A stretch of 32,000 bases of DNA. It comes from Aeropyrum pernix K1. GTDB taxonomy: Archaea > Thermoproteota > Thermoprotei_A > Sulfolobales > Acidilobaceae. The position numbers and the translations under genes are program-made. The stretch covers positions 540,001 to 572,000 of the forward strand of contig NC_000854.2 of NCBI RefSeq assembly GCF_000011125.1. Reading direction: 5' to 3'. The notes under the pieces are model-generated. The model was not told where the DNA came from. It was given only the letters and a program-made list of their open reading frames with translations, and made no database searches. This document shows positions 2,685 through 30,452 of this stretch, piece by piece; the first letter of the stretch is position 1, and each line of letters begins with the position of its first letter.

Positions 2685-2794
2685 GCGCATCATACAGGAG
2701 CCCCCTCCTACAATCACATAAACAACCAGCTACCCACTCGGTTTCTCAACCGGACATTCAATCTGCTATACGGTTGTTATACGCCTCTGGCTCC

Positions 2795-4380: not shown

Positions 4381-4444
4381 AGTGGCTCTAGCCCTTCCCG
4401 GATCCTCTCTGAAGCCGCCATGCGGTGGGTGTGCCTGGGTGGGG

Positions 4445-4488
4445 GTTAGAGACCCCTTTTCCGGTGTTCTGTCGAGGGCTTCTCTAAC
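4445..4488. repeat. bipartite palindrome copy 1
   Basis: Left arm GGGTTAGAGAC, right arm TTCTCTAACAC; arm-to-arm offset 36 nt. Upstream of gene 4519..4908. Confidence 0.85.
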
Positions 4489-4518
4489 ACTGCGCATACA
4501 ACACTCGGGGTGGCCTGA

Positions 4519-4908: not shown

Positions 4909-5889
4909 ATGGCCGTGCCCCCCGCCTCCCGGGCCTGCCGAGGTGGCGGGGGGCGGGGCTGGGGGTTAGAGATTGTTCTGGCCGATCTTAGGCGGGGCTT
5001 CTCTAACCTCCTCGAGTGGGAGCTCCTCAGTATAGTCGAGCTGAAGAGGCGGGGCCTAGGCCTCTCGGAGATAGCCAAGGCGGTTTACGGGACCAGCAGG
5101 AAGAGGTACAGGGTCTTCCGTATTCTGAGGCGTCTCCAGCGCATGGGTGTTCTCGACTGCCTACTCGAGGGCTCATGTTGCGCCCTGGGTGGGGAAGGCG
5201 ACGGCGGCCATGTTGCGCCTGCCGAAGATGCGCAACATGAAGGCGACGACGGGAGCGGGGAGGCGACATCGGAAGCAACATGGGAGGGGCTGCCTGGGAG
5301 GCTGGGGAGGACTCAGAAGCTTGTCATAGCGGCTCTGGCTATCCAGCTGGAGGCCACGCCCAGCATGATAGCTGCCTACGTCAACCATGCATACGGGAAA
5401 CGGGTTTCCCGGAACGCTGTGTGGCACGCCCTCAAGAGGCTGTCAGCCCGGGGTGTCGTTGAGAGGCTACCCCGGGGCTACTACAGGCTCCGCAGGCTCT
5501 CCAGCGGCATCCTGGTGGAGAACCTCAGGGTGAGGGGTCGCATGGTATGGAGCACGAGAGAGGAGGGTAGGCCAGCCACGCTGGAGGAGGCGTTAATAAC
5601 GGCGGCACTCAGAGACAGGACGTGGCCCGTGGAGCAGGCGGAACTCCTCTCACACGGCCCCCGCAAGCTGCTGGAGAAGGCAAGGCTGCTCGAAAGGCTG
5701 GGCTGGAGAATGACGGTTATGTATATAGACAGGAAGAACGGCGCCCCCAGGCTGAAGCTGGAACACAGGCTCTGGAACACACCCATACCGGCAAGGCCGG
5801 AGGAGCTATACTCATGGGTAAACCTATACAGGGAAGCCTCATCACTGGCAAGAGACCTCGCCGAACACATACTAGCGCGCACACGCTAG
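4909..5889 (+). CDS. DNA-binding protein with two (w)HTH-like domains (candidate regulator or replication/partition factor)
   Basis: LLSIVELKRRGLGLSEIAKAVYGTSRKRYRVFRILRRLQRMGVL is a LuxR/sigma-r4-like HTH. MIAAYVNHAYGKRVSRNAVWHALKRLSARGVVERLPRGYYRL is winged-helix-like. Palindrome copy 2 lies in its 5' part. Confidence 0.6.
   Translation: MAVPPASRACRGGGGRGWGLEIVLADLRRGFSNLLEWELLSIVELKRRGLGLSEIAKAVYGTSRKRYRVFRILRRLQRMGVLDCLLEGSCCALGGEGDGGHVAPAEDAQHEGDDGSGEATSEATWEGLPGRLGRTQKLVIAALAIQLEATPSMIAAYVNHAYGKRVSRNAVWHALKRLSARGVVERLPRGYYRLRRLSSGILVENLRVRGRMVWSTREEGRPATLEEALITAALRDRTWPVEQAELLSHGPRKLLEKARLLERLGWRMTVMYIDRKNGAPRLKLEHRLWNTPIPARPEELYSWVNLYREASSLARDLAEHILARTR
4965..5007. repeat. bipartite palindrome copy 2 (intragenic)
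   Basis: Left arm GGGTTAGAGAT, right arm TTCTCTAACCT; offset 35 nt. Inside the 5' part of ORF 4909..5889, read as G-L-E...F-S-N. Confidence 0.8.
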
Positions 5890-5947
5890 CCCATGTTGCG
5901 GGCGGGGGGTTCGTGGGCGCGCAATATTGGGGTTTGTGGTTGGGTTT

Positions 5948-6655
5948 TTATTGGCAGATTCTTTTTATGTTGTTTATGCGTTCGTCTAGGGTGAGGGCTG
6001 GTGCTCCTAATGTGGTTTCGTGGCTTGTGTTGATGCCTTGTTTCTTTAGGTGGTTGAGTATTTCTGCGAATATTAGTGCTGGTTTGCAGCCGGTTGTTTT
6101 TGCTGCTAGTGTGTCTGCTTCTAGTTCTTGTTCTTTTATTGTTGTTGCTTCGTATTTTGTGGTTTGTGCTAAGAGGGCGAGTGAGATTATTATTAGTAGT
6201 AGGTTGGCGGTGGGTTTTTCACTTTTCTTTGTTCTGTTTAGGTTTTTGATTGAGTCTTTGAGGCTGTCGAAGCTTATTTTGGTTAGTTGTCTTGTCGTGT
6301 AGGATGCGATGGCGTGGTTCTTCACTATATGGGCTACTTCGTGTGCTACGATGAATTTTATAACCTCTTCTGGCAGCTTATCCGCTAGTTCTCTACGGAT
6401 AAACACTATTCCGTAGCCGCCTAGTCCTATGGAGAATGCGAGCTCGTAGGCTGGTAGCTTTTCGTTCTCTTTAAACAGCGCCACTATTATTATGCCTCTT
6501 GAGCCCATTCTGGAGGCTAGTTCTTGTGCTAATGCTGTGTATTTGATGTCTAAGTTAGATAAGGCGAGGAGCAGAAGATCTATTAGCTCATCCTCCACAC
6601 TTCTTTCGCTCAACTGCCTATTCCGACCTAAGTTTTTGGGGTGCTTCATGTTCAA
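5948..6655 (-). CDS. M48-family-like Zn metallopeptidase
   Basis: The HExxH motif in FIVAHEVAHIVKNH maps to about 6329-6343. A downstream QELEADTLAAKTTG matches the ExxAD third-ligand motif of the M48 (HtpX/Ste24-like) family. The gene is AT-rich. A TATA (6689-6699, minus strand) abuts palindrome copy 3. Confidence 0.65.
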   Translation of the reverse strand: MNMKHPKNLGRNRQLSERSVEDELIDLLLLALSNLDIKYTALAQELASRMGSRGIIIVALFKENEKLPAYELAFSIGLGGYGIVFIRRELADKLPEEVIKFIVAHEVAHIVKNHAIASYTTRQLTKISFDSLKDSIKNLNRTKKSEKPTANLLLIIISLALLAQTTKYEATTIKEQELEADTLAAKTTGCKPALIFAEILNHLKKQGINTSHETTLGAPALTLDERINNIKRICQ

Positions 6656-6699
6656 GATCCACTCAGCTTTTAAAGATAGTGCGTTATACTATATAATAT

Positions 6700-6742
6700 G
6701 TTAGAGAAGGTATTACCGCTATGCTGTGAAGTTTTCTCTAAC
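6700..6742. repeat. bipartite palindrome copy 3
   Basis: Left arm ATGTTAGAGAA, right arm TTCTCTAACAC; offset 35 nt. Abuts the TATA at 6689-6699. Confidence 0.9.
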
Positions 6743-6840
6743 ACGTGCTGGTGGTGTGAGCCCGATGCGAGCCTCGATCATAAATACCGTAGCCATGTAA
6801 CATGACATCTATACTGCTTAGACTTACTCCAAATGAACCC
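6743..6840 (+). repeat. conserved noncoding module, copy A (paralogous to 9437-9535)
   Basis: Shared blocks in the same order and similar spacing after a palindrome copy: GAGCCCG, TAGCC(A/T)TGTAA, TATACTGCTTA (6810-6820 vs 9509-9519) and GACTT. Confidence 0.6.
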
Positions 6841-7021
6841 ACCCCACCTAGAGTTACGGCTTCCGGCCACGATGTAGGGAAGGGAGTTTTCCCTTGTTTC
6901 CAGCCTAGCACCCTCTGGGGAGGTTCCGATTTTATTATTCTAGGGTTTTTCTGGGTGCCTCCTATAGTATTAGGAGTCATGGTGGCAAAGGCTGCATGTT
7001 AGAGTTTCCGATTACGTCGCG

Positions 7022-8005
7022 TTGCAGAGGCCTGGGTTGAGATATGGACTGTTTCTCATTATATCCGGTGGGGCGGCCTTGGTTCTGAGCTTCAATATTG
7101 AAGGACGGTTGTCCGAAGTCCTCATGGCTATTAGTGCGACCCTAACGGCCTCGGGTGCGATAATAGCCGCCCAGTCCTTGGCTCAACTGGAGATTCAAGA
7201 AGCCTTAGAGAGCAGAAGGGAGCATAAGAAAAGACTTGATAAGTTGGCAGAGCGTATCATCAGAGGTGACGCTGGTAGGATTGTATCTAACGCTATAGGG
7301 TTAGAGAAAACAAAATTTGACATACTCTATTCAGAACCCTGCGATACACTTGAAGCATTGAAAGACGAGGAGCCTTATCTCCTGAAGGATCTAGACACTC
7401 ATCTTGAAGGTAAGCCTATAAGTAAACTGCTAGATGTTTGCAGGAAGCATAAAAAGTCGGTAAAATCTTTAGATGAAGAATTGGATGAGATAGCTTCCAG
7501 AGTAGTTGATTTTGTGGTGCAGGAACTTGGACAGCAGTATAAAATTCTGGAAACGTATGACAATTCGTTTAAAGAATTCGTTAAAACTAAAGTATTAGCA
7601 CCCACTATAAGAACCATACATAATAATGAGTCTCAATGGACGCTTGAGAATATAGTAAAAGAAGCACGTAGAATACAGGATGAAATAAAGATGGAAGTGA
7701 AATTGAAGGATACGTACAAAGGGGGTATGTCAGGCATAGATGTATACATGTACGCGTTCAAGCTAGTATATGTTAAAGCTCATTTGCCGACAGAGGGTCC
7801 AGCCGTTCGCAATAACGTTCTGAGAGTGTTTAAAGAGGTATTTGAACAAAAGCTGGCCAGCTATGCCAAAGACCTAGTAGATAAGGTGGAGGAGACTTCA
7901 TCATTAACGCGCAGTGCAGAAGAAATCAAGAAGCTAACGGTAAATCGTTTATACGAACTGAGGGAAAAAACGTATCTTCCAAACCTCTGCCAGTACGTAA
8001 AGTAA
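7022..8005 (+). CDS. hypothetical membrane protein (2 N-terminal TM helices plus a charged helical domain)
   Basis: Hydrophobic segments LFLIISGGAALVLSF and VLMAISATLTASGAIIAAQSL are followed by a Lys/Glu-rich region. AT-rich codon usage differs from the backbone. The start is uncertain (TTG 7022 or TTG 7037). Confidence 0.55.
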   Translation: MQRPGLRYGLFLIISGGAALVLSFNIEGRLSEVLMAISATLTASGAIIAAQSLAQLEIQEALESRREHKKRLDKLAERIIRGDAGRIVSNAIGLEKTKFDILYSEPCDTLEALKDEEPYLLKDLDTHLEGKPISKLLDVCRKHKKSVKSLDEELDEIASRVVDFVVQELGQQYKILETYDNSFKEFVKTKVLAPTIRTIHNNESQWTLENIVKEARRIQDEIKMEVKLKDTYKGGMSGIDVYMYAFKLVYVKAHLPTEGPAVRNNVLRVFKEVFEQKLASYAKDLVDKVEETSSLTRSAEEIKKLTVNRLYELREKTYLPNLCQYVK

Positions 8006-8225
8006 AATAGCGTTACTTCAAAGGGAGCCTTGCACTGCCTACCTATGTAAAACTTTGGTCGTCTTGGGCTCCTTGATTCATTATTTGAACATTATATATC
8101 ACACCCGTTAATCATCGTGTTATTAAAGCTTTGCCAGCTATGGTTGGAGAAGTCAGCTCATAACATACTCAACCATCTCTTTAAACCCTGGATGGGCCCT
8201 GGAGGTTCTGTCTGCTTGCCTGGCT

Positions 8226-8417
8226 GTGGTGGGGCTCGGGGCCCAGGTTAGGGTTTTGAGGGGGTTGTTGGAGCTGTATCATGCTAGGTTGCCCGGCGAT
8301 GTTAAACGCGGTATAGTGGATATGTTGGATGAAGCCGAGGCTTTGAAGGCCGTCTTGAAGCGGGAGCTGGATCCGGTTTTGCGTAGGCTCGGAGACAAGG
8401 TGTTAGAGAACGGTTAG
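8226..8417 (+). CDS. hypothetical small helical protein (63 aa)
   Basis: GC-rich islet inside the AT-rich island. The last codons (GTG TTA GAG AAC GGT TAG) run into palindrome copy 4. Coding status is uncertain. Confidence 0.3.
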   Translation: MVGLGAQVRVLRGLLELYHARLPGDVKRGIVDMLDEAEALKAVLKRELDPVLRRLGDKVLENG

Positions 8418-8445
8418 CCTGGGTTGCCTGTCCTGTTCTCTAACA
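8403..8445. repeat. bipartite palindrome copy 4
   Basis: Left arm GTGTTAGAGAA, right arm TTCTCTAACAC (perfect 11-mers); offset 35 nt. Confidence 0.9.
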
Positions 8446-8473
8446 CCCTGGAGTCTAGGGTCTAGGCATGGTG

Positions 8474-8517
8474 TTAGAGGGAGGCTTTTTGCTCCAAGCT
8501 GGATGCTTTCTATTACT
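8474..8517. repeat. bipartite palindrome copy 5 (degenerate)
   Basis: Left arm GTGTTAGAGGG; right arm TCTATTAC matches 6 of 8 positions at offset 36. Lies 29 nt after copy 4. Confidence 0.5.
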
Positions 8518-8558
8518 CATGTATGATGCATAGTATTAGATGTTTGATAAAAGAATGG

Positions 8559-9350
8559 CTAGCGTTTTTGATGGCATAGATTTAGGGCTTCCTCTGCTAT
8601 TTGTACTAAATAAGTTTTTTGAACAAATCCTACTAATTCATTTATAGTCTTACTTGTTTCTTCCGTTATAGGGTTGTCGAGTTGCTTTAGTAGGATTCTT
8701 GTTCTATCTAGTATTTCTGTTGATCCCGTAGTTTCTGCTGCTCTTTTAATGATCTCTAGAGCTTCTTTTGGTCTTGGCATTGAAAATATATCGTGTCCTT
8801 GGCTGGAGGAGGTTAGTGGCGTAATGGCTAGGGAGCGGCTTTTAATGGCCTCTGGTAGGCCCCAGCAGATGATTATATATCCTTTGAATGGATCACTATA
8901 ATTATGTTTCTTTGCTTCGGCAACAGCTTTAAGGAGCGTTAATAGCGAGGCTGCAATATCTGGCTTCATTGATTCTATTACTTGTTGTTGGGCTAATTCT
9001 CTTGTGTAATAAGCTTGATAGTATATTGCTCCTAGCACGAAGAGAGATATTATTACGCTAATTATAGTTAGCACGCCTGATGTTACATCCCATAAAGGGA
9101 TAAAGCCTTTAATATATAAAAGCCAACTTACTACAATGATGACCAAAGAGACTACAAACAAAATTACACTTACAAGCTTTGGCTTCAGATCCATCATCTC
9201 CCAGAGAATACTTAGACTATAGCAATACCATATTTTATTTTTATGGTTAGAGAAGCTTCTTATATGAGGATTGTAGTTGCCCTCTAACTCCGGATTTCTA
9301 TGCTCTCTTGTAAGGAGTTGTCTCTGCGTCTCGTGGCTCCTGTTAATCAT
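8559..9350 (-). CDS. hypothetical membrane protein (2 TM plus a soluble domain); a short form probably starts at 9197
   Basis: The TM segments LVSVILFVVSLVIIVVSWLL and VLTIISVIISLFVLGAIYY follow the internal MMDLKPK (ATG 9197). A TATA (9231-9244, minus strand) abutting palindrome copy 6 lies about 39 nt upstream of 9197. A second TATA (9381-9390) abutting copy 7 could serve the long form starting at 9350. Confidence 0.55.
   Translation of the reverse strand: MINRSHETQRQLLTREHRNPELEGNYNPHIRSFSNHKNKIWYCYSLSILWEMMDLKPKLVSVILFVVSLVIIVVSWLLYIKGFIPLWDVTSGVLTIISVIISLFVLGAIYYQAYYTRELAQQQVIESMKPDIAASLLTLLKAVAEAKKHNYSDPFKGYIIICWGLPEAIKSRSLAITPLTSSSQGHDIFSMPRPKEALEIIKRAAETTGSTEILDRTRILLKQLDNPITEETSKTINELVGFVQKTYLVQIAEEALNLCHQKR
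9246..9288. repeat. bipartite palindrome copy 6
   Basis: Left arm TGGTTAGAGAA, right arm CCTCTAAC (7 of 8); offset 35. Abuts the minus-strand TATA at 9231-9244. Confidence 0.75.
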
Positions 9351-9393
9351 GGTTGATGGACGTGGCGGTGTCGGGGTGGGTATATAATAAGGT

Positions 9394-9436
9394 GTTAGAG
9401 AATGTTAGGGCACTATGCTGAGGAACCTTCTCTAAC
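9394..9436. repeat. bipartite palindrome copy 7
   Basis: Perfect GTGTTAGAGAA / TTCTCTAACAC; offset 35. Abuts TATATAATAA at 9381-9390. Confidence 0.9.
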
Positions 9437-9535
9437 ACCTACTGTTGGCGCGAGCCCGTGTTGAGTCTTGATCTATCTATGAATGCTATAGCCTTGTAAT
9501 GCATGGTTTATACTGCTTATGACTTCCGCCTCTGA
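9437..9535 (+). repeat. conserved noncoding module, copy B (paralogous to 6743-6840)
   Basis: See copy A. Both modules are preceded by TATA plus a palindrome, and both end near AGTCATGGTG (6975-6984 and 9563-9572) leading into a GTTAGAG half-site or full site. Confidence 0.6.
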
Positions 9536-9571
9536 GTTTTAACTACTTAAAGCCCTAACTCCAGTCATGGT

Positions 9572-9614
9572 GTTAGAGAATGTTTTAGGCGGTTTTGAAC
9601 AGTCGTTCTCTAAC
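9572..9614. repeat. bipartite palindrome copy 8
   Basis: Perfect GTGTTAGAGAA / TTCTCTAACAC; offset 35. Followed by TTATTATA at 9619-9626. Confidence 0.9.
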
Positions 9615-9700
9615 ACCCTTATTATACGTTTCAGGTTGCTCCGTGCTGTTTCCAGTCTTCATCTAGTATGTTGCATGGCGCATATAGTATGTAGGGTGGG

Positions 9701-9979
9701 TTGGTGTCTGTGCATGTGGATAGGTTTGTAGCAGTAGTGGATTATATTATAGATATTGTTGCGGGTGTTTTGATGGCGTTCTTCATGGTGGTGTTTGGCT
9801 GGTTTCTGAAGGGAGCATATGAAGTGCATAGGGCTGGTGCTTGCGATGGGCTCTGCATGAATCTATTTGTTCTGAGCCTGATAGGGTTCATGCTTGCTAC
9901 CGCGCTTTCCCTCTTCTTTTCTAGGTCAATACTGAGGAAGCTAGGGGGTGCAAGTGATGGTCCTAGAGTATGTGCGTAG
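9701..9979 (+). CDS. hypothetical small membrane protein (92 aa)
   Basis: Two or three hydrophobic helices (IVAGVLMAFFMVVFGWFL, LFVLSLIGFMLATALSLFF). First gene of the long plus-strand block, downstream of palindrome copy 8 and a TATA. Confidence 0.5.
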   Translation: MVSVHVDRFVAVVDYIIDIVAGVLMAFFMVVFGWFLKGAYEVHRAGACDGLCMNLFVLSLIGFMLATALSLFFSRSILRKLGGASDGPRVCA

Positions 9980-10436
9980 GCTTGTTGGGGCTAGGGAGAA
10001 GCCTGATCCCCGTGAGCTTTTGGGTTTGGTGGAGGCGGTTGATGCTGGGCAGCAGCAGGGTGGTGCGCCCCCGTTCGACTTGTATACGTTGCTTGAGGAC
10101 GAGAAGGTTGGGCGCGAGCTGTGGCCCTATATTCTGGGGTTTGTGGCGAGGGATACGAAGCTCACCTACTTTACGGAGAGGGATGAGGAGTACCTGTTCT
10201 GGAAGATCGAGGCGATAGCGACTAAGATAGAGATGGCGCTGAACTCGCAGACCCCGCCGCCCGACCGGTTCCCCAGGGTTGAGGATTACGTGAAGGTTGT
10301 GGAGGCGCAGCGGCTGCTGGCGGACAACCTGAGGGTGCTGATGCTGGCGGCCGTGAGGCGCTCCACACTGGGCTTCGAGAGGAGGCTGCAGGCGATGCGC
10401 CACTTCGTCTTCTCCTACTCGGACAGGAGGTTCTAG
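9957..10436 (+). CDS. hypothetical protein
   Basis: Track ORF 9948..10436. ATG 9957 is preceded by the SD-like GGGGGTG. It overlaps the upstream gene's end, giving an operon-style arrangement. Confidence 0.5.
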   Translation: MVLEYVRRLVGAREKPDPRELLGLVEAVDAGQQQGGAPPFDLYTLLEDEKVGRELWPYILGFVARDTKLTYFTERDEEYLFWKIEAIATKIEMALNSQTPPPDRFPRVEDYVKVVEAQRLLADNLRVLMLAAVRRSTLGFERRLQAMRHFVFSYSDRRF

Positions 10437-10441
10437 GGGCC

Positions 10442-11401
10442 TTGATGGGCGCGCTCATGCTGCTGGGCATGGCCCTCGGGGGGCTGGCGGGCCTGGGGGC
10501 TGGCTACCTGCTCTACCCCTCGAGGCCCGACCTGGCCCTCCTGGCGGGGCTGGGCGCCGGTTCGGCCCTGGGCTGGGCTATGGGGTTCTTCTACTGGAGC
10601 TTCGGGGTTCCACCGGCGTTCAAGCAGGCTATGCGGGCTGCTAGAACCGGGTTCCTTATTGTGGCTGTGGGGGCGGACAAGAAGGCCCGCCTCCTCCCGG
10701 GGTTCAGCGACGGCTTCGTGGTCCGCCCGGCGCCTAGGCCCTACAGGGATAAGTACGCGTGGGCGGCGGACGGGGAGAGCAGCTACCCTATCCACGGGGG
10801 CCGGGGGACCCAGCTCCTCGTAACATTCATGGGCTACCCCTTCCCCCTGGAGGCCGGGAAGGCGGCGGCCGTCTCGAAGTTCAGGGAGAGGGGGTTCAGG
10901 AGCATTGAGGACCTGAAGACGGCGGTGGAGCTGCCTACTGTGGAGGAGATTGAGGCCCGGATGCGGGAGCTGGAGGCGGCTAGGGCCTCTATAGAGAAGA
11001 TGGACGAGGGGGAGGTTAGGCGGCTCTACGGCGAGGATAAGCGCCAGCTTCTCGCTGAGGTTGATAGGGAGCTGGAGCGGCTGGAGAGGGTTAGAGAACT
11101 CGTTAAGGAGTACGGCGGCGGCAGTTCTCTAACCGTTAACGTGGACGGCGCCACGGTGAGGGCCTCGGACCTCATCTCCTACCTCGTCTGGCGCCACCAT
11201 CCGAGCGAGATCGACAGGATAGTGAAGGCTGAGACCAACGCGGTGCTCTCCAGGCTCTCCGCTGTGGACTGGCTGAGGCAGCTCCTGCCGGTCATCATAG
11301 TGACGGGTATGTTCGTGCTGGGTATCATAGTGGTGGTGTACATGCTGAAGGGTGGCGGGCCCCCGGCGCCGGTCGAGTCCATAGCTATAGGGGGTGGGTA
11401 G
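10442..11401 (+). CDS. hypothetical membrane protein (N- and C-terminal TM segments, central coiled region)
   Basis: N-terminal Gly/Ala/Leu-rich TM helices, a central Glu/Arg-rich helix, and a C-terminal TM (LLPVIIVTGMFVLGIIVVVYML). It contains palindrome copy 9 in frame. Confidence 0.55.
   Translation: MMGALMLLGMALGGLAGLGAGYLLYPSRPDLALLAGLGAGSALGWAMGFFYWSFGVPPAFKQAMRAARTGFLIVAVGADKKARLLPGFSDGFVVRPAPRPYRDKYAWAADGESSYPIHGGRGTQLLVTFMGYPFPLEAGKAAAVSKFRERGFRSIEDLKTAVELPTVEEIEARMRELEAARASIEKMDEGEVRRLYGEDKRQLLAEVDRELERLERVRELVKEYGGGSSLTVNVDGATVRASDLISYLVWRHHPSEIDRIVKAETNAVLSRLSAVDWLRQLLPVIIVTGMFVLGIIVVVYMLKGGGPPAPVESIAIGGG
11090..11133. repeat. bipartite palindrome copy 9 (intragenic, in frame)
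   Basis: Left arm GGGTTAGAGAA, right arm TTCTCTAACCG; offset 36. Read as V-R-E...S-L-T in ORF 10442..11401. Confidence 0.85.
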
Positions 11402-11404
11402 GCT

Positions 11405-11809
11405 TTGGGCTACAGCAGGTTCAGGACTGTTAAGAGCCTGCAGCCCGGCTTCATAGCCGTCATCTCCGAGGTGGCCCTGGAGGCTGTTAAGGCTAAGATC
11501 GCCGCCTCGAGGAACCCCTTCGCCGCCTACGACTACGCCGAGGCCCTGGACGCCCTGATATCCGTTCTGCCGCCGGAGGCCAAGCAGGACATTACCAAGC
11601 GGCTCGGGGTTGACGTGGATATTGTCGTCGAGGAGGCCCTCGGTAGCTGCTCGAGGGATCCGAACGCGCATCCCTACGTAAACGAGGCCAGATGCCTCCG
11701 GAGGGTCAAGGAGGACCTAGACAAGCTGCTCCGAGTTGTTTTCGACGTAGCCCACAGGAGGGGCTTGTTCGTGGTTGAGAGGGAGGTGCTGTACGGTGGG
11801 GAGGCGTAG
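11405..11809 (+). CDS. hypothetical protein (134 aa)
   Basis: ORF packed 3 nt after the previous stop, with the same codon bias. No recognisable domain. Confidence 0.5.
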   Translation: MGYSRFRTVKSLQPGFIAVISEVALEAVKAKIAASRNPFAAYDYAEALDALISVLPPEAKQDITKRLGVDVDIVVEEALGSCSRDPNAHPYVNEARCLRRVKEDLDKLLRVVFDVAHRRGLFVVEREVLYGGEA

Positions 11810-12668
11810 GATAGAGGATGTCCTTGAGATACTCGAGTCCGGGGATCTAGGTGAGATAGACGGGGTGGCGGAGAACGCGAGGGAGTTCTATGAGAGGCCT
11901 GAGGAGGCCGAGGAGTCCGGCGTGGGCTGGAGCATCCTCGCCGGGTGGATGGAGTCGGCGTTCAGGACCGGCGGGTTCAACTCGGTTATAGTCTACGGGA
12001 AGCAGGGGGCCGGTAAGTCCGTGTACGCCATTAAGGTTGTCTACGACCTGCTCCGCAGGCTGGGCGTGGTGCCCGCTAGCTCGACCAGCCGCATAGTCTT
12101 CAAGCGGTACATGGTTTTCTCCGCGTCCCACTTCATCGGGAAGATCAAGAACGCCCGGGGGGCTAGGCTGCCAGCGGTGATATGGGACGATGCGGGGGTC
12201 CACGGGGGGTCCTACCTGTTCTTCACCGACGTGTTCCTGGCTAAGGCTTTGGGCGACCTCTTCAGGGTCGCCAGGACCAGGGTGGCCAACATAATCTTCA
12301 CAACCCCCAGCCCCCGGGACCTGCTGAAGCCGTTTCGCTCCTACGACACGATTATAGTCTATGTGCACGAGATGGACGAGGTTTGGTCGAGGGCACACAT
12401 CTACAAGATGAGGCTCCTGCCCTCCGGCGATGTACGGGTTCAGAAGAAGGCTATGGAGGACTTCCGGAGGAGGCTTAGGACCTACGACGAGTACATCAGG
12501 ATTAGGGATAGGTATGTTGACGAGGCTATTGACGCTTTGGAGGAGCTTATGCTGGTCAAGTATGCTGAGAGGGCTATGAAGAGGGCCAGGCTGTTTGAGA
12601 AGGCTGCAAGGCTGGGGGGCTGGAGGGGGTTTGAGGCAGAGGACCAAGGATCCTATCGGGACGATTAG
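11775..12668 (+). CDS. P-loop NTPase (AAA/DnaA-like or packaging-type ATPase)
   Basis: Walker A is VYGKQGAGKSVYA (about 11994-12020). A Walker B-like AVIWDDAG lies at about 12174-12194. The start is uncertain (TTG 11775 or GTG 11796). Confidence 0.7.
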   Translation: MRGRCCTVGRRRIEDVLEILESGDLGEIDGVAENAREFYERPEEAEESGVGWSILAGWMESAFRTGGFNSVIVYGKQGAGKSVYAIKVVYDLLRRLGVVPASSTSRIVFKRYMVFSASHFIGKIKNARGARLPAVIWDDAGVHGGSYLFFTDVFLAKALGDLFRVARTRVANIIFTTPSPRDLLKPFRSYDTIIVYVHEMDEVWSRAHIYKMRLLPSGDVRVQKKAMEDFRRRLRTYDEYIRIRDRYVDEAIDALEELMLVKYAERAMKRARLFEKAARLGGWRGFEAEDQGSYRDD

Positions 12669-12706
12669 GATCTCCCAGCTACTGTTAAACCTGGTGGAGC
12701 AGATGT

Positions 12707-12748
12707 GTTAGAGAATGTTTTCTCGTGATGGTCTAGTTGTTCTCTAAC
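12707..12748. repeat. bipartite palindrome copy 10
   Basis: Perfect GTGTTAGAGAA / TTCTCTAACAC; offset 34. Followed by TTTATAAA at 12755-12762. Confidence 0.9.
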
Positions 12749-12806
12749 ACATCCTTTATAAACCGGCTCCTCAAGCTGCATTCTTATTTGGGGGTCACCG
12801 CGGGCT

Positions 12807-13472
12807 ATGCCTTCTAAGGCTGAGACGGCAGCGCTGCTGCGGGGCTTGGGCTACTCCTATCTTGAGATAGCTAGGGAGCTCTATCCTGGGGACTACCGGC
12901 GTTATCGTGAGACTGGGGATAGGAGGCTTTATCAGCTTTTGAAGAAGAGGGTTTGGAAGCTGCTTAGGCTTGCCGGGGGTGGTGGATCCCGGGGTAATGG
13001 GGTGGTGGACCCTCCCGCCGGGTGGACCCTTGAGGTGGAGTTTGACGAGTCCGGCTGGGAGAGGGACAGCCCCACCCCCCGCGCGCCCCCGGAGCTGCCC
13101 CATCCTAGGGAGCGTAAGCGGGGGCTGCGGGGTTTCGAGAGGCAGGTGGTGGAGTATGAGCAGCTCCTCTACTATTATTACACGAGGCATCTGAAGGGTT
13201 ACGACTCCTCGGGCGTCATCTGGGGGACTATAAAGCTGGTGCACGGCCGGGCTTTCAGGGGGTTCTACGAGGAGCACGGGGTTAACGTTTGGCGGAGGGA
13301 GAAGGCGGGGCGGGTCGCCAGGGCTTATGTTTACTCTGTTATGGTTGTTTCTCTGTGGCTCCACGGCTACTGGTTCTACAGCGAGCTTAGGGAGCGGCTT
13401 AGGAGGGCGCTTGACGTGGATAGGGAGGATGTGGCCAAGGTGCTTCCGCTTGTGATGGGTACTGTGGTCTAG
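12807..13472 (+). CDS. HTH-containing protein (LuxR/sigma-r4-like N-terminal HTH)
   Basis: AALLRGLGYSYLEIARELY resembles a LuxR/sigma70 region-4 HTH and also the GLGLSEIAKAVY segment of ORF 4909..5889. The upstream region is palindrome copy 10, then TTTATAAA (12755-12762), then the SD-like GGGGGT. Confidence 0.55.
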   Translation: MPSKAETAALLRGLGYSYLEIARELYPGDYRRYRETGDRRLYQLLKKRVWKLLRLAGGGGSRGNGVVDPPAGWTLEVEFDESGWERDSPTPRAPPELPHPRERKRGLRGFERQVVEYEQLLYYYYTRHLKGYDSSGVIWGTIKLVHGRAFRGFYEEHGVNVWRREKAGRVARAYVYSVMVVSLWLHGYWFYSELRERLRRALDVDREDVAKVLPLVMGTVV

Positions 13473-13495
13473 AGCATTACATCTTTGGGTGCCGC

Positions 13496-14215
13496 TTGGT
13501 GCTTCCACCTAGGCTCCGCGGGAACCCGGTCCTCTCCAGGTATGCCCGGTTCTATAAGACCCCCTCACCCCCGGCTCCAGCGGTGACCAGGGGCGCCCCG
13601 GGTCCCCGCCCGACGGGCTCTAGGCCTCCGCGCTCCGGCTCCAGGGCTTCCGGTAGGGGCCGGGACCTTGTGGATGCGCTTCTAAAGGAGGGTCTTGCAT
13701 ACAGGGATGAGGAGCGCGGGTATGTTGTTTTGAAGAGGCCCGACGCCTTCAAGATCCTGGAGGGGAGGAGGGCTTCTAGGTCGAGGCCGAAGACAGCCAG
13801 CGTAGGCTGGGAGGAGCTGGAGAGGAGGAGGTGGGATAGGAGGGTTGAGAGGGCCGCGAGCTTCGCCTACACCTCGACGCCGGGGAGCGCTATACTTGAC
13901 GACGTCCACTCGCAGGACACTCTGAACAGGTGGATGGAGCAGTGGGTGCAGAAGCTCGTGTCGGAGGGGTACAGCGAGAAGAGCGCCAGGTCTATGGCCG
14001 CGAATATGCTGGGAGGCGACTTCAGGGAGGATTTCGAGGCGGCGGTAAGGCAGATGATGAACGAGCTGGGCCCGGGGTCGAGGCTGTACACGTGGTACGG
14101 TGAGGGCGGGTGGCATGTTACCGTGTTCAACCCGAGGACCGGCCGGAAGAAGAGCCTCAGCTTGAAGGAGTTCGCCAGCAGCTGGGAGCCCGACTTTGTC
14201 ACGGTTTGGGACTGA
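13496..14215 (+). CDS. hypothetical protein
   Basis: Long ORF in the co-directional block. The N-terminal 58 aa are Pro/Arg/Ser-rich low complexity, so the in-frame GTG at 13670 is an alternative start. Confidence 0.45.
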   Translation: MVLPPRLRGNPVLSRYARFYKTPSPPAPAVTRGAPGPRPTGSRPPRSGSRASGRGRDLVDALLKEGLAYRDEERGYVVLKRPDAFKILEGRRASRSRPKTASVGWEELERRRWDRRVERAASFAYTSTPGSAILDDVHSQDTLNRWMEQWVQKLVSEGYSEKSARSMAANMLGGDFREDFEAAVRQMMNELGPGSRLYTWYGEGGWHVTVFNPRTGRKKSLSLKEFASSWEPDFVTVWD

Positions 14216-14230
14216 GGGTGGTGTGGTTGC

Positions 14231-15496
14231 ATGCTGAGGCGTCGTGTTCTGATGGACGGCGGGGGCTCGGCTGGCTCCGCCCCCTCCTCCCCCGGCTCTT
14301 CTAGGCCCCCGGACTACAGCCTCTACGAGTCTCAACCCCGACCGGCACCCGCGTCCTGGAGCCCCCTGGGTGTGCTGGCCTCTGCTCTCGACGCCCCCTA
14401 CAGTTTTGTCCAGGAGAGGGGGTGGGGGGTTGTTGAGAGGCTTAGGAGGAGGGCGTTGAGGGAGAAGGCTGAGGGGGACTATGCCGAGGGGTTTCTCTGG
14501 GCTCTGGGCGCCTCTGCCGCTAGCTTCGGCGTGGGCGTGGCGGCCGGTGTTACGGGGCTCTTCAGCCCTAGGGCCTGGAGGGAGGCTTTCCACGCCTTCA
14601 TGCACCCGGGGGAGACTGTGAGGGCCGTGGCGTCCGACCCTCTGTCGTGGCCGTATCTTGCGGGGTCTGTGGTCGGGCCTGCTAAGCTGGGGAGGGCTGT
14701 TGGGCGGAGGCTGGGGAGGGTTAGAGAACCCGATTTAGCCTCTACCAGCGAGGGTTCTCTAACACTTGTGGCCGCCAAGGGAGAAAGGCTCAGATGGGCG
14801 GCCAGGCTCGAGGCAAGAGGCCCCACAGTAGGGGTTAAGGGTGTGAAGCCCAGGCCCCCGCCAGACAGGCTCGTCACCCTCGAGACCCCGAGGGGTAGGG
14901 TTGAGCTGCTCGAGTCTAGGCGGGGCTCCACCGTTAGGAGGGTCTATAGGGCTGAGTACAGGGATGTGGGGAAGAAGCTGCTGGGGGTTGAGGAGTGGAG
15001 TGTCGAGGGCTGGCTGAGGCCTAGGTACCGGTACCGGGGGCTGCTTGTCGACCCGGAGACGCCCGGGGCGGCCGTCCTCCTGGAGGCCCGGAGGCCGTTG
15101 TTGAGGGGTGTGGATCTGCCGCCTCCCAGACTGTGGGTCGAGCCTAGGCTTGCCGCTCCCGCCGGGGCTGTAGGCCTTATACTAGGCCTCGGCGCCGCCG
15201 GGACCGGTGCTCGGGGCGGTTTGGAGGGTGGTGCCGCTGGGCGGCCTGCTGAGGCGGGTGCCCGGGGGCTTGTGTCCGGGTCCTCTCTGGCCGGGGGTGA
15301 GGCCGCGGCCTCTACCCTGGCGGGGGCCTCGGCCGCGTCTTCCCCGGCGGAGCCCTCTGCAGCCTCAGCCGGGCGCGGGGGTCCTGAGGCTCCCCCGCTC
15401 CTGGGGTCTGGTTCCCGGGGGAGGCGTGGCAGGAGGGGGAAGCTGGCTTACTCGGAGATCCTGTATCCTGGCGGCGTGCTTCTGGAGCTTCTCTAG
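14231..15496 (+). CDS. hypothetical protein with a Gly/Ala/Ser-rich C-terminal region
   Basis: 421-aa ORF containing palindrome copy 11 in frame. The C-terminal third is low complexity (GAAGTGARGG...ASAASSPAEPSAASAG). Confidence 0.5.
   Translation: MLRRRVLMDGGGSAGSAPSSPGSSRPPDYSLYESQPRPAPASWSPLGVLASALDAPYSFVQERGWGVVERLRRRALREKAEGDYAEGFLWALGASAASFGVGVAAGVTGLFSPRAWREAFHAFMHPGETVRAVASDPLSWPYLAGSVVGPAKLGRAVGRRLGRVREPDLASTSEGSLTLVAAKGERLRWAARLEARGPTVGVKGVKPRPPPDRLVTLETPRGRVELLESRRGSTVRRVYRAEYRDVGKKLLGVEEWSVEGWLRPRYRYRGLLVDPETPGAAVLLEARRPLLRGVDLPPPRLWVEPRLAAPAGAVGLILGLGAAGTGARGGLEGGAAGRPAEAGARGLVSGSSLAGGEAAASTLAGASAASSPAEPSAASAGRGGPEAPPLLGSGSRGRRGRRGKLAYSEILYPGGVLLELL
14720..14763. repeat. bipartite palindrome copy 11 (intragenic, in frame)
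   Basis: Left arm GGGTTAGAGAA, right arm TTCTCTAACAC; offset 36. Read as V-R-E...S-L-T in ORF 14231..15496. Confidence 0.85.
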
Positions 15497-19313: not shown

Positions 19314-19330
19314 TCGGAGGCCTGGGGGCG

Positions 19331-19648
19331 ATGCAGGGCTTCATAGCCTATCTTGTGGGCTTCGCGGTTGTGGCCGGGGTGGCGGTGGCCCTGGGTATAA
19401 CGCTGGGGTTCTTCGCCGACATAGCTAGCAGTCTGACGTACACCACTACCACGACTTCGGTAGACCCTTCTACCGGCCAGACGGTGACTATAACACAGAC
19501 CAACTACTACGTGCCGCAGGAGTACATGAACGTGATAGACATGGCCCAATCCCTGGGCGGCACCGGGGTCACGCTGGCGATAGCAGCGCTGATAGTGGGC
19601 CTGGCCCTTCTGCTGATAGCTGTGATCAGGCAGACTGGCGGGGTGTAG
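19331..19648 (+). CDS. candidate major capsid protein, paralogue 1 (fusellovirus VP1/VP3-like, two hydrophobic helices)
   Basis: MQGFIAYLVGFAVVAGVAVALG...AQSLGGTGVTLAIAALIVGLALLLIAVIR. Size and the double-TM architecture match spindle-virus capsid proteins. A strong leaderless promoter, GCATATATA, lies about 23 nt upstream. Confidence 0.6.
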   Translation: MQGFIAYLVGFAVVAGVAVALGITLGFFADIASSLTYTTTTTSVDPSTGQTVTITQTNYYVPQEYMNVIDMAQSLGGTGVTLAIAALIVGLALLLIAVIRQTGGV

Positions 19649-19661
19649 CCGCATATATAGG
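19646..19661 (+). promoter_or_regulatory. leaderless promoter of capsid-like paralogue 2 (TAGCCGCATATATA box)
   Basis: Same 14-mer as at 19298-19311, centred about 22 nt upstream of TTG 19676. Confidence 0.6.
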
Positions 19662-19675
19662 GTGGTGAACAGGGG

Positions 19676-19942
19676 TTGCAGGGCTTCACAGCGTATCTTG
19701 TGGGGTTCGCTATAGTCGCTGGCTTCGCAGTGGCGCTGGGCTTCATATTCGGCATATTCAACCAGATAGTGGCCCAGCTCAACACAGACCCCAACAACCC
19801 GATGATAAGCCAGGAGTTCGTCGACGCCATAAACCTTGCCCAGAGCCTTGGGGGCACCGGCCTGACCCTTGCTATAGCGGCGCTTATAGTAGGCCTCGCG
19901 ATGCTCCTCATAGCCGTGATCAGGAGCTACTCGGGCGTCTAG
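19676..19942 (+). CDS. candidate major capsid protein, paralogue 2
   Basis: Clear paralogue of 19331..19648 (MQGFTAYLVGFAIVAGFAVALG...AQSLGGTGLTLAIAALIVGLAMLLIAVIR). TTG start preceded by the same TAGCCGCATATATA box. Confidence 0.6.
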   Translation: MQGFTAYLVGFAIVAGFAVALGFIFGIFNQIVAQLNTDPNNPMISQEFVDAINLAQSLGGTGLTLAIAALIVGLAMLLIAVIRSYSGV

Positions 19943-19974: not shown

Positions 19975-21267
19975 TTGGCCCGGGTGCCAGTTTTGAGGCT
20001 GTCAGCCGTACTTGCGGGTGGCCTCCTGCTCCTCTTGCTGGTGGCCCCTATCCCTGGGTGGACCCCTGCGGCTGCTCAGGCGGGCGTCTTCCTGGAGATA
20101 GTGCTGCCGGACGGGAGTGGCTACAGGTTCGGCCCCCTGATACTCGAGAGGGGCGATCTAGTGGCCCCCAGCTTCTACAGGCTGGTGCTCGACGGGTCGG
20201 GCTACGTCGAGTTCGACCTCGCGCCCGAGGCCGGTACTGTGGCGGCCCTGGTGAGGCCCTACAAGACGCCGGACTGGAACGCTATAGCCAGCAACGACGA
20301 GGCCCTCTCCTGGAGGCTCTACGTCTCCCAGGCCTCAGACGCCTACGAGTTCATGAGGAGGGACAGCGCCCTAAACGCCTACGTGGCTGGCGACGGGGCC
20401 GCCCGGGACGGCGTGCTCGTGTGGGTCCTAGCCTACACCTACAGCGACAGGCTGGAGATACACGCTACCGGCAGCGGGAGCGCCTCGTGGACCGGGAGCC
20501 CCGCGGGCCCCGCTGCCAAGGTACTGATAGGCTCTAACATGTTCAACGGGAGCGAGGTCCCGGCCCAGCGGTGGATCGGGGAGATATGGGCTGTTGTGGT
20601 GCATTCGCAGCCCGCCGTCGACCCTAGGGGCTACGAGGTCCCCGCTTCGGGGCTGGAGCTCCTATTCGACCCGGGCTGGTACCTCGGCGGGGGCCTGTTC
20701 GCCGGGCTCTCGGGGTCCGGGTTCGTGTACGGGCGCCTGGTAGGTGATGCTGTGCTCGAGGCGTCTGCGCCTAGGATCTGGGTGGTTAGAGACGCCTACA
20801 CAGACCAATACCTGCACGTTTCTCTAACACCCTACGGCTCGAGGCTGAGGGTGCTCGACGCCTCCGGCGAAGTCCTGGCAGAGTATAGTGTGATATCAGA
20901 CAACAGGGTGGGGGACCTGGTGCTCGACTACCAGGTACCCTGGCCCCCGGCGCCGGGATCCGGCGGTGGTGATGGGGGGCTGGGGGCTCTGGACCTGCTG
21001 GCCGTCCCCGTTGTGCTGCTCGCCCTTGCAGCCCCGGGGGTTGCCCTGGCATCCGGTCCGGTTTGGGGGTTCACCTTCGCCGTCTTCGCCGGGGTCGCTG
21101 GCTGGGTCTCACTGTCGCGGGCCGGTGGCTTGGGGGTTGAGGGGAGCGTGTGGCAGGGGCTGGCGCTGCTCGCCCTGGTCAGCATGGTTCTGGCGGTGGT
21201 CCTATCTGCGGTCAAGCTCCTCGCCTGGAGGGGCGGCCTCAGGGAGCCCAGGGGTTTGGACCTGTGA
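19975..21267 (+). CDS. secreted protein with C-terminal TM helices (possible LamG/concanavalin-like fold)
   Basis: Signal peptide (LLLLLLVAPIPGWTPAAAQA), a beta-rich central part, and three C-terminal TM helices. It contains palindrome copy 12 in frame. Confidence 0.6.
   Translation: MARVPVLRLSAVLAGGLLLLLLVAPIPGWTPAAAQAGVFLEIVLPDGSGYRFGPLILERGDLVAPSFYRLVLDGSGYVEFDLAPEAGTVAALVRPYKTPDWNAIASNDEALSWRLYVSQASDAYEFMRRDSALNAYVAGDGAARDGVLVWVLAYTYSDRLEIHATGSGSASWTGSPAGPAAKVLIGSNMFNGSEVPAQRWIGEIWAVVVHSQPAVDPRGYEVPASGLELLFDPGWYLGGGLFAGLSGSGFVYGRLVGDAVLEASAPRIWVVRDAYTDQYLHVSLTPYGSRLRVLDASGEVLAEYSVISDNRVGDLVLDYQVPWPPAPGSGGGDGGLGALDLLAVPVVLLALAAPGVALASGPVWGFTFAVFAGVAGWVSLSRAGGLGVEGSVWQGLALLALVSMVLAVVLSAVKLLAWRGGLREPRGLDL
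20785..20828. repeat. bipartite palindrome copy 12 (intragenic, in frame)
   Basis: Left arm TGGTTAGAGAC, right arm TTCTCTAACAC; offset 36. Read as V-R-D...S-L-T in ORF 19975..21267. Confidence 0.85.
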
Positions 21268-27041: not shown

Positions 27042-27060
27042 CCACCCATTTAACCGGGCG

Positions 27061-27103
27061 GTTAGAGAAGCACGATCCGGCTACTGTCTTGACGTTCTCT
27101 AAC
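27061..27103. repeat. bipartite palindrome copy 13
   Basis: Left arm CGGTTAGAGAA, right arm TTCTCTAACAC; offset 35. Followed by ATTTAT at 27112-27117 and the TTG start at 27135. Confidence 0.9.
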
Positions 27104-27134
27104 ACCTCCGCATTTATGCTCTGGGGAGGGCTGG

Positions 27135-28360: not shown

Positions 28361-28408
28361 ACCCCCCAGGGTCTCCCGGGGTGGATTCCGAACTTGGCGG
28401 CGGCGTGT

Positions 28409-28450
28409 GTTAGAGAATAAGGCTAAATTCCTTACAGCATTTTCTCTAAC
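28409..28450. repeat. bipartite palindrome copy 14
   Basis: Perfect GTGTTAGAGAA / TTCTCTAACAC; offset 34. Followed by a C/A-only tract. Confidence 0.9.
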
Positions 28451-28525
28451 ACCCCACACACCCCCGACCAGCCACGACACACATACACCCAACCCCCCGC
28501 CACACACAGGCCGGGCGGAAGCACA

Positions 28526-28717
28526 GTGGGGGGTGGCGGGTTGGACTGGGCGAGCGTCTTCCAGTTTTACGCCCGTCTCAAGAGGGAGCTTAGGGAGGCG
28601 GTGCACGGTTGCGAAGCAAGCCCTGAGTGCAAGAGGATCGTGTGGGAGGCCGTCTCGAGAGTCCTGGAGGAGAAGGCAGTAGAACTCGAGGAGATGGCCG
28701 CTTCTTCTCCCAAGTAG
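28526..28717 (+). CDS. hypothetical small helical protein (63 aa)
   Basis: Last GC-rich ORF before the abrupt drop to AT-rich sequence at about 28718. GTG start (alternative TTG 28541). Confidence 0.35.
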   Translation: MGGGGLDWASVFQFYARLKRELREAVHGCEASPECKRIVWEAVSRVLEEKAVELEEMAASSPK

Positions 28718-28889
28718 GCTATAAAATATTGAAGATTATGAATTCGAATGTACGAGTGTCTGTTTGTGTTTTTAATTATCTGAGTTTCACTAACGTATAT
28801 TTTTCTTTGGGCTGTTCGATAGGGCGCATGTGGAATACGGATAAGCGCCTATGCTTGGTGGACTGCTTTAATATCTAGGTGATGACAAG

Positions 28890-30376: not shown

Positions 30377-30408
30377 GGAACATTCGAACCTCGTGCTACA
30401 ATTTAAGT

Positions 30409-30452
30409 GTTAGAGAATAATCAGCGACAGATTAGGTCGATATTTCTCTAAC
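30409..30452. repeat. bipartite palindrome copy 15
   Basis: Perfect GTGTTAGAGAA / TTCTCTAACAC; offset 36. Abuts the minus-strand TTAAAT at 30401-30406, upstream of gene 29321..30376. Confidence 0.9.

Follow-up and report, generated by a model that had tools for sequence, protein, structure and literature searches.

Why does one palindrome with widely separated arms recur along the APSV1 provirus of Aeropyrum pernix K1, in several cases directly beside a TATA-like box? We analysed a stretch of 32,000 nt of the A. pernix K1 chromosome (positions 540,001 to 572,000; hereafter “the window”), which contains the left junction of the APSV1 provirus and the first 27.9 kb of the provirus. Window coordinates equal APSV1 virus coordinates plus 4128. 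A sequence-only reading of this window had proposed that an outer arm of the palindrome occupies the TFB recognition element (BRE) immediately upstream of the TATA box, where a bound factor would either recruit or occlude TFB/TBP, and that the copies define a single regulon that comprises backbone genes and AT-rich cargo genes. The results described below suggest that the palindromes are probably operators for a protein and that they define a viral regulon.

Form and placement of the palindrome

The motif has the form GTTAGAGAA-N24-26-TTCTCTAAC, i.e. it is a 9-base inverted repeat, and the window contains 14 clean pairs. The arms form a perfect inverted repeat of 9-13 bp, each half-site is itself a non-palindromic 9-mer, and the arms are separated by 33-35 bp from centre to centre. 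The 11-mer arm TTCTCTAACAC, with at most one mismatch, has 21 matches in the window, compared with 0.43 expected, and none of 100 shuffles reached this number. In addition to the 14 pairs, three decayed copies and one orphan half-site are present.

Nine of the 14 copies are situated in non-coding DNA, which makes up 9.4% of APSV1. All 25 exact half-sites lie within virus positions 1-26,400, and no exact half-site was found in the last 11.6 kb of APSV1 (orf37-orf53) or in the host flank. The chance that 14 uniformly placed sites all fall in that 69% of the virus is about 0.006. APOV1, the other provirus of A. pernix K1, has zero copies of the motif. With its copies spread over 26 kb, the palindrome does not represent an origin or a cluster of iterons. 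Two AT-rich islands (window positions of about 5900-9700 and 28700-31000), which have GC contents of 0.39-0.46, compared with about 0.63 in the backbone, contain seven of the 14 palindromes. The islands resemble acquired cargo, now subject to the same control as the backbone.

The exemplar, GTGTTAGAGAA-N24-TTCTCTAACAC (12705-12750), is located between orf12 and orf14; TTTATAAA (12755-12762) follows after 4 nt and the orf14 start codon ATG 12807 after 57 nt. An annotated gene for 38 aa, orf13 (12665-12781, minus strand), lies wholly over this palindrome and the orf14 promoter and is probably not a real gene. Three further copies precede plus-strand start codons. The copy upstream of orf2 (4443-4490; N26, one mismatch in the left core) is followed by a weak box, GCATACA (4494-4500), and TTG 4519. 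The copy upstream of orf8 and the orf9-12 replication module (9570-9616) is followed by TTATTATA (9619-9626) and a start codon at 9701/9704; TTG 9701 is present, and the annotated start of orf8 is 9704. The copy between orf31 and orf32 (27059-27105) is followed by ATTTAT (27112-27117) and TTG 27135, 30 nt from the arm.

On the minus strand, the copy in the divergent region between orf4 and orf5 (6698-6744) is 0 nt from ATTATATA (6689-6699), and the orf4 start codon ATG 6655 is 43 nt off. Upstream of orf7, a copy (9392-9438) is 1 nt from TTATTATATA (9381-9390) and 42 nt away from ATG 9350, and a further copy in the annotated 5′-part of orf7 (9244-9290; two mismatches in the right arm) is combined with an A/T run (9231-9244) and ATG 9197, an in-frame internal codon of annotated orf7. 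The gene orf7 has two candidate starts, the annotated ATG 9350 and the in-frame ATG 9197, each behind its own palindrome and A/T box, which suggests two isoforms or a mis-annotated start. The copy upstream of orf36 (30407-30454) is 0 nt from TTAAAT (30401-30406). The start codon ATG 30376 is about 27 nt from the centre of this box, so that the geometry of the orf36 promoter is that of a leaderless transcript.

These eight combinations of palindrome, A/T box, and start codon had been listed by the sequence-only reading, and all of them were recovered where it had placed them, with GCATACA shifted by one base (4494-4500, not 4493-4499). The boxes are convincing for six copies (6698, 9244, 9392, 9570, 12705, and 30407) and weak for two (27059 and 4443). 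Upstream of orf8, a second A/T-rich string, CGCATATAGT (9679-9688), is better conserved in relatives than the arm-adjacent TTATTATA and is also nearer to the start. CGCATATAGT followed by GGGTTGG is kept in three relatives (at the APSV1, L058, and L111 positions; L-numbers denote the retrieved loci compared with APSV1, and L001 is the whole APSV1 virus), about 60 nt past the palindrome and about 20-25 nt before the start of orf8/orf9. The replication module probably has its real core promoter here.

The association with promoters was quantified in several ways. Eight of the 14 copies are situated 29-88 nt upstream of an annotated start, compared with an expectation of 1.84 (P = 5e-5). A window of eight A/T out of eight positions is present 0-8 nt from an arm in five of the 14 copies, while 0.42 are expected genome-wide and 0.85 under a local null of ±300 nt, for which the observed value was reached in none of 2000 simulations. 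When only intergenic placement was considered, the A/T adjacency was four of nine, with 0.67 expected (P = 0.003). Taken by position, A/T boxes start 0-6 nt from an arm in six to eight of the 14 copies, and six copies are without promoter context.

These six copies have diverse locations. One is placed in the 5′-end of orf3, 54 nt past the start codon and with no TATA box near (4963-5009), and another extends across the last codons (VLENG) and the stop codon (8415-8417) of orf6, also with no TATA box (8400-8446). Three are found within orf10 (11088-11135; absent from the L058 homologue of orf10), orf16 (14718-14765), and orf23 (20783-20830; one mismatch). The sixth is located 74 nt upstream of orf34 and has no A/T box (28407-28452). 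A CA-rich tract, cccacacacccccgaccagccacgacacacatacacccaaccccccgccacacaca (28453-28510), occupies the region between this palindrome and orf34, where other copies have an A/T box.

Of the three decayed copies, GTTGGAGAA-N25-CTCTTTAAA (8143-8185; four mismatches) is upstream of orf6 and, together with the copy at 8400-8446, brackets this gene, while GTTAGAGGG-N26-TTCTATTAC (8473-8516) is situated directly past the latter copy. The third, TGTAGGGAA...CCTAGCAC (6873-6911), belongs to a duplicated divergent-promoter module of about 230 nt, the two versions of which (6693-6925 and 9387-9620) have 74% identity and include the copies at 6698 and 9392. The order within the module is minus-strand TATA, palindrome, about 130 nt, second palindrome, and plus-strand A/T box; in the version at orf4/orf5, the second palindrome has decayed to the relic just mentioned. 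About 90 nt between the two palindromes are conserved (GAGCCCG...GATC...TAGCC.TGTAA...T.TATACTGCTTA) and could represent a small RNA gene, a peptide gene, or a plus-strand promoter. The orphan, an exact half-site GTTAGAGAA without a partner arm, is located inside orf5 (7300-7308).

Conservation in related elements

For an overview of the distribution beyond A. pernix, 185,579 species genomes (596 Gb) were scanned with the exact pattern; A. pernix K1 itself was not among the genomes returned. The motif was found in about ten contigs of metagenome-assembled genomes (MAGs) of Acidilobaceae/Desulfurococcales, several of which contain multiple copies, with eight in 8 kb in L010. The motif-bearing archaeal loci encode homologues of APSV1 proteins. 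About 36 further genomes had matches, all of them single copies and none archaeal. In 596 Gb, a palindromic pattern of 18 bases that allows three spacings was estimated to match about 26 times by chance, and therefore the non-archaeal singles are at chance level. Among the genomes scanned, the exact motif was found only in APSV1-type elements. A scan of metagenomes added four relatives (L109, L111, L113, and L114), the remaining matches being mostly chance singles, and a scan of IMG/VR yielded chance matches only. Three retrieved loci (L065, L069, and L105) turned out to be unrelated sequence.

About 20 related loci from Acidilobaceae/Desulfurococcales metagenomes have the 9-bp arms in unchanged form, whereas their spacers and flanks drift. 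An alignment of 43 sites from 12 loci revealed information content only for the nine bases of each arm (1.4-2.0 bits per position) and none for spacer and flanks. The spacer lengths of the 43 sites are 25 (19 sites), 26 (17 sites), 24 (six sites), and 23 (one site).

Several placements are conserved together with the motif. At the orf14 promoter, the arm is followed after 3-4 nt by TTTATAAA, TTTATTAG, or TTAATAAA in APSV1, L058, and L052, and an A/T box after the arm is also present in L160. The palindrome upstream of the orf8/9-12 replication module is kept in APSV1, L058, and L111 (with orf9 homologues in the latter two), and the one upstream of orf2 is common to APSV1 and L033, the L033 site having a strong box, TTATGATAATA. 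The site in the 5′-end of orf3 is kept in the orf3 homologues of six loci. It is translated as L-E-x...F-S-N in APSV1, L033, and L046 and as V-R-E/D...S-L-T in L058, L022, and L010. The use of two reading frames for one conserved site shows that selection is at the level of the DNA, and protein coding is ruled out as the cause of arm conservation.

The claim that an arm sits at the BRE can be narrowed on this basis. In about half of the window copies, the proximal arm abuts or overlaps the predicted BRE position beside a TATA-like box, and this layout is kept at the orthologous promoters of orf14 (APSV1, L058, L052, and L160) and orf2 (APSV1 and L033). It is not general, as conserved copies are also found in genes, at 3′-ends, and downstream of TATA boxes, and the A/T association is weaker in relatives.

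The genes of small helical proteins resembling orf6 (8226-8417, plus strand; 63 aa) provide a further conserved context. Such genes are bracketed by two palindromes in APSV1, in L018, and three times in L010. The proteins share the core LLELYHxRLPEDV...ALxEAE...DPVLRxL. In these units, a conserved TTTATTA-type box precedes the left arm by 42-47 nt, and the spacer contains an in-frame start codon. Assuming a TATA box centred near −26, the palindrome would be situated roughly at +15 to +60 of the transcript. The family is multiplied in relatives, i.e. in L010 (2394-2630, 3664-3957, and 5289-5543), in L018, and in L058 (3824-4096), and every member has a palindrome on either side, with its start codon in the spacer of the upstream one. 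As readers of the motif, the orf6-like proteins were discarded: their only invariant residues are L, P, E, A, and D, and they have no family match. We regard orf6 as probably a tightly controlled cargo gene and not the binder.

In a Desulfurococcales chromosome, L055 contains a decayed APSV1-like island (8743-15329) with fragments of orf9 and orf12, an orf3 homologue, a remnant of orf34, and an orf6-like gene. Its palindromes are only degenerate, i.e. GTGTTAGAGAA-N34-TTCTCTAGCA and GGTTAGAGTC...GAGTCTAACC (15106-15156). A different recurrent palindrome, based on GTATATAC (AGCGTATATAC...), was observed in L156 (11600-11732 and 8166-8204) and L059 (4-21 and 1911-1944), which are motif-negative elements encoding orf3-like proteins. 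In L156, it is arrayed about every 30 nt beside the integrase. It may be an alternative operator set or an origin; that these variant palindromes co-vary with the divergent orf3 homologues of L156 and L059 was considered, and no link to orf3 was established.

Proposed operators, alternative explanations, and candidate binders

We propose that one sequence-specific DNA-binding protein of the APSV1-type element binds the palindromes. A single DNA-binding domain would read each 9-bp arm (GTTAGAGAA), and a dimer or higher oligomer would hold two arms and tolerate an arbitrary spacer of 23-26 bp. The sites appear to mark most boundaries of transcription units in the first 26 kb, i.e. those of orf2-3, orf4, orf7, orf8-12, orf14 onward, orf32, orf34, and orf36. 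Bound at an arm that abuts the TATA box, the protein would mask the BRE and thus be a competitor of TFB/TBP, and where the site is downstream of TATA or in a gene, it would block RNA polymerase. The predicted net effect is that the units are silenced jointly in the lysogen and released jointly upon induction. The proposal of one regulon is partly supported, in that the motif marks one co-ordinated set of promoters in the GC-rich backbone as well as in the AT-rich islands, with BRE occupancy being only one of several contexts.

Whether a bound factor would recruit or occlude the basal factors had been left open by the sequence-only reading. The contexts of the element are mixed, i.e. upstream of TATA (on the BRE), downstream of TATA, in genes, and at 3′-ends, and an activator works only from upstream, so that a DNA-bound repressor or roadblock fits better than an activator. 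The mixed positions therefore favour occlusion or roadblock, and within the operator reading we hold repression to be about twice as likely as activation. The opposite possibility is that the sites are bipartite upstream activating sequences of 42-46 bp, to which the virus-encoded ArnR1-like protein orf44 binds just upstream of BRE/TATA, where it recruits TFB/TBP and turns the lytic units on after induction. It is compatible with the activator function of ArnR/ArnR1, with the ArnR1-like domain of orf44 and its tracking of the motif, and with the weakness of several motif-linked boxes (GCATACA, ATTTAT, and none at 28407), as expected of activator-dependent promoters. ArnR and ArnR1, the characterised relatives of the orf44 domain, depend on a bipartite region of 41 bp (−43 to −84) upstream of BRE/TATA (PMC6396743), and their being activators also speaks against repression. 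However, in most TATA-adjacent copies the arm is 0-4 nt from the box and hence at the predicted BRE rather than upstream of it, conserved copies past TATA with a start codon in the spacer, in orf3, and at 3′-ends cannot be upstream activating sites, and the strongest boxes (TTTATAAA and TTATTATATA) should need no activation; we thus consider activation unlikely. An architectural role appears less likely still. In this case a multivalent protein would bridge the 14 sites and compact or cluster the provirus for silencing by condensation, partition, or packaging, with promoter proximity being secondary, and the cluster of chromosomal loops at APSV1 would result. A Hi-C study of A. pernix K1 indeed found that 19 of 171 loops emanate from APSV1 and suggested shared transcription factors, naming no motif (PMC10769869), and the dispersal of the sites over 26 kb, including intragenic and 3′-end copies, and the combination of strict arms with a loose spacer would suit bridging. 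Yet the reported loops join APSV1 to other chromosomal loci, while, among the scanned genomes, only APSV1-type elements have the exact motif, and neither APOV1 nor the host flank contains it; the published maps, with their resolution of 3 kb, are too coarse for single sites, and the fixed arm-to-TATA distance of 0-6 nt and the placement at orthologous promoters argue for action at the promoter level. As an equally speculative combination of the two roles, a winged-helix protein of the orf44 family might oligomerise over the wide half-sites, bridge the 14 sites, and fold the silent provirus into a hub, so that the motif would be both an operator and the architectural element behind the 19 loops, in an archaeon without SMC proteins.

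Two further explanations are highly improbable. The palindromes might be recombination or mobility sites, either attC-like cassette boundaries or the ends of miniature transposable elements, as pairs of palindromes bracket orf6-like genes, the AT-rich islands have the highest density of copies, and the outer cores GTTAGAG/CTCTAAC superficially resemble the integron cores GTTRRRY/RYYYAAC. Against this, the core order GTTAGAG...CTCTAAC is the reverse of that in attC, and no IntI-type integrase or attI is present, so that an integron attC was rejected. The sole recombinase is an SSV-type integrase that acts at tRNA-Val, and the spacer of 24-26 bp is far longer than the crossover regions of tyrosine recombinases. 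A miniature inverted-repeat transposable element, or another small element with terminal inverted repeats, was likewise rejected: target-site duplications of at least 3 nt were found at neither boundary definition of the copies, and the spacers share no internal sequence, their identity between copies being at random level (mean 0.26). Furthermore, the sites are kept at the promoters of orthologous backbone genes and not at cargo alone. The bracketed orf6-like units each have their own conserved upstream TATA-like box. Even less probable is a nucleic-acid hairpin, i.e. a DNA cruciform or a transcript stem-loop acting as terminator, stabiliser, or translational switch at the start codon. At 37 °C, four of six copies have z-scores of −4.7 to −5.5, and DNA hairpins reach −7 to −14 kcal/mol; several copies have 3′-untranslated-region-like positions or enclose a start codon. 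A. pernix grows at about 90-95 °C, and at 90 °C the free energy of the arm-arm stem, even as RNA, is +1.5 to +6.6 kcal/mol for all 14 copies. In addition, mismatches in the arms of the window copies are never compensated in the partner arm, no T-runs follow the arms, four copies are in divergent promoter regions outside obvious transcripts, and a search of the window against Rfam returned tRNA only. The hairpin was rejected on the grounds of its positive free energy at 90 °C, the uncompensated mismatches, and the lack of an Rfam family.

APSV1 encodes several DNA-binding proteins, i.e. orf3, orf44 (ArnR1-like winged helix), orf45 (MarR-like), and orf48 (ribbon-helix-helix). The 326 aa of orf3 (4909-5889, plus strand) comprise a helix-turn-helix (HTH) domain (20-87), a disordered linker (91-128), a winged HTH domain (134-194), and an alpha/beta domain (200-324). 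An AlphaFold2 model had a pLDDT (predicted local distance difference test) of 85 with a 29-sequence alignment, and solved counterparts were found for the winged HTH only (MarR, RosR, Fur, and STIV F93). In favour of orf3 as the binder, conserved sites lie both ahead of its gene and within it, and its two HTH modules, joined by a flexible linker, could bridge 34 bp. About 40 clusters make up the orf3 family. Among eight loci retrieved via orf3 homologues, canonical copies are present only in L058, and a decayed copy in L055. Motif presence is interleaved in the orf3 tree, e.g. the motif-positive L022 is 55% identical to the motif-negative L154 and 29% identical to APSV1. The recognition helices are identical in motif-positive and motif-negative homologues, e.g. 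LRNRVWQALRRL in L022 and L154, and in the motif-negative homologue genes no trace or decayed form of the in-gene site was found. These three results weaken orf3 as the reader, which makes it an improbable binder, and it looks like a conserved target of the motif instead.

The block orf44-46, which is located just outside the window, is the best binder candidate, and we tentatively assign this role to it. orf44 has 94 aa and consists of a winged-helix domain only, which matches PF22166 with E = 5e-61 over positions 1-90 of the 90-position profile. Loci retrieved via orf44 homologues, a selection that is unbiased with respect to the motif, were motif-positive in three of three cases (four exact copies in L160, two in L161, and one with a single mismatch in L162). 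In comparison with the one of eight loci retrieved via orf3, this corresponds to a one-sided Fisher P of 0.024, or 0.06 if the decayed L055 is counted as positive. Between APSV1 and one MAG, the orf44-46 proteins have identities of 66-76%, while the orf3 proteins of this pair reach only 29%. L154 has an integrase and an orf3-like gene, no motif, and a different regulator in place of the orf44-46 block. Co-occurrence does not separate orf44, orf45, and orf46 from one another. The remaining probability falls to some other viral or host protein.

Genes of the orf44-type winged helix are multiplied in relatives, with two paralogues in L161 and four in L162 (9356-10623). In L161, a palindrome begins at the first base past the stop codon of each paralogue (7768-8094 and 10519-10863), and the two palindromes are nearly identical even in their spacers.

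Several observations weigh against the proposed operators and their assignment to orf44-46. The palindrome-box-start architecture is missing from six of the 14 copies (4963, 8400, 11088, 14718, 20783, and 28407), and the A/T-box tendency in relatives is modest (12 of 34 sites, with 7.1 expected; P = 0.034). The retrieved orf44 homologues are closer to APSV1 (60-88% identity) than the retrieved orf3 homologues (28-57%), which confounds the comparison of the two sets of loci. APSV1 itself has no copy beside orf44, and it is not obvious how a winged helix of 94 aa would match non-palindromic half-sites that are about 34 bp apart. The binder might also be a host protein with host targets, the rest of the A. 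pernix chromosome lying outside the scan.

Neighbouring features and comparison with known systems

The host part of the window contains the genes for the tRNA-modification enzymes TYW2 and TYW3 (700-2284) and a tRNA-Val gene (2607-2684; anticodon TAC), which is followed by a C-terminal fragment of 452 aa of an SSV-type integrase (2774-4132). The intact integrase in the virus record has 520 aa, and the fragment at the junction thus shows that the gene is split by integration, as in fuselloviruses. The last 11.6 kb of APSV1 (orf37-orf53) encode a methyltransferase, a glycosylase, the regulators orf44, orf45, and orf48, and the integrase. At 19327-19924, direct repeats with a length of about 100 nt and 70-74% identity correspond to orf21 and orf22, a tandem pair of paralogues that encode small hydrophobic proteins, possibly of the virion or of a membrane.

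The APSV1 virus and operator regulons as a kind are already known. The motif, its geometry, its conservation in uncultured Desulfurococcales elements, and the link to orf44-46 were not found in the searchable literature, which did not include the original APSV1 description of 2011, so that an earlier mention is possible. A full-text search for the arm strings retrieved only unrelated primers and short hairpin RNAs. How lysogeny is controlled in viruses of hyperthermophilic Desulfurococcales is essentially uncharted. This group has few inducible proviruses, among them APSV1, and nearly all APSV1 genes are ORFans. A conserved predicted operator with 14 copies is thus an experimental handle that predicts which transcription units switch together. 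It also leaves a few small regulators as candidates for the switch protein and provides a defined DNA probe. The wide 9-N(23-26)-9 geometry is unusual for archaeal regulators and would be informative on how the protein assembles on DNA. In addition, the motif is a candidate loop anchor, and it offers a testable account of the Hi-C loop cluster at APSV1 at the sequence level.

Among known systems, integron attC sites share with the palindromes the imperfect symmetry, the conserved outer cores, the variable centre, and the bracketing of small genes. In contrast, APSV1-type elements keep their sites at backbone promoters as well, and no sign of cassettes moving at the sites was found.

In function, the system resembles the operator sets of small regulators encoded by temperate archaeal viruses. 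F55 of SSV1 and the repressor of phiH act on repeated sites that overlap the core promoters of several units and keep the virus silent. Their operators are short tandem or close repeats at a handful of promoters, whereas the APSV1 sites have the form 9-N(23-26)-9, are present in 14 copies over 26 kb, and are family-wide. The host repressors MDR1, LrpA, and Phr occlude the BRE/TATA or the transcription start by binding to compact palindromic sites of 13-20 bp. The position of the APSV1 sites relative to the core promoter likewise predicts steric exclusion of TBP/TFB or RNA polymerase, but the half-sites are about 34 bp apart.

The closest characterised counterpart of the candidate binder's family is ArnR/ArnR1 of Sulfolobus acidocaldarius, whose sites at the flaB promoter comprise two boxes of the type TCGAC-N5-GTCGA at −43 to −84 upstream of BRE/TATA (PMC6396743). 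In both cases the sites are bipartite, of about 41 bp in scale, and located just upstream of BRE/TATA; ArnR needs both halves for binding, and orf44 matches the ArnR1-like Pfam family over its full length. In contrast, each ArnR box is a 15-bp inverted repeat, whereas the halves of the APSV1 motif are non-palindromic 9-mers in inverted orientation, the proximal one of which would reach the BRE (it lies 0-6 nt from the A/T box). A large activator that is anchored in the membrane, ArnR has an HTH domain, HAMP-like and sensor domains, and two transmembrane helices, and it acts at a few promoters, while orf44 is a soluble domain of 94 aa. Lastly, and unlike the ArnR boxes, APSV1-type sites are also found downstream of promoters and in genes.

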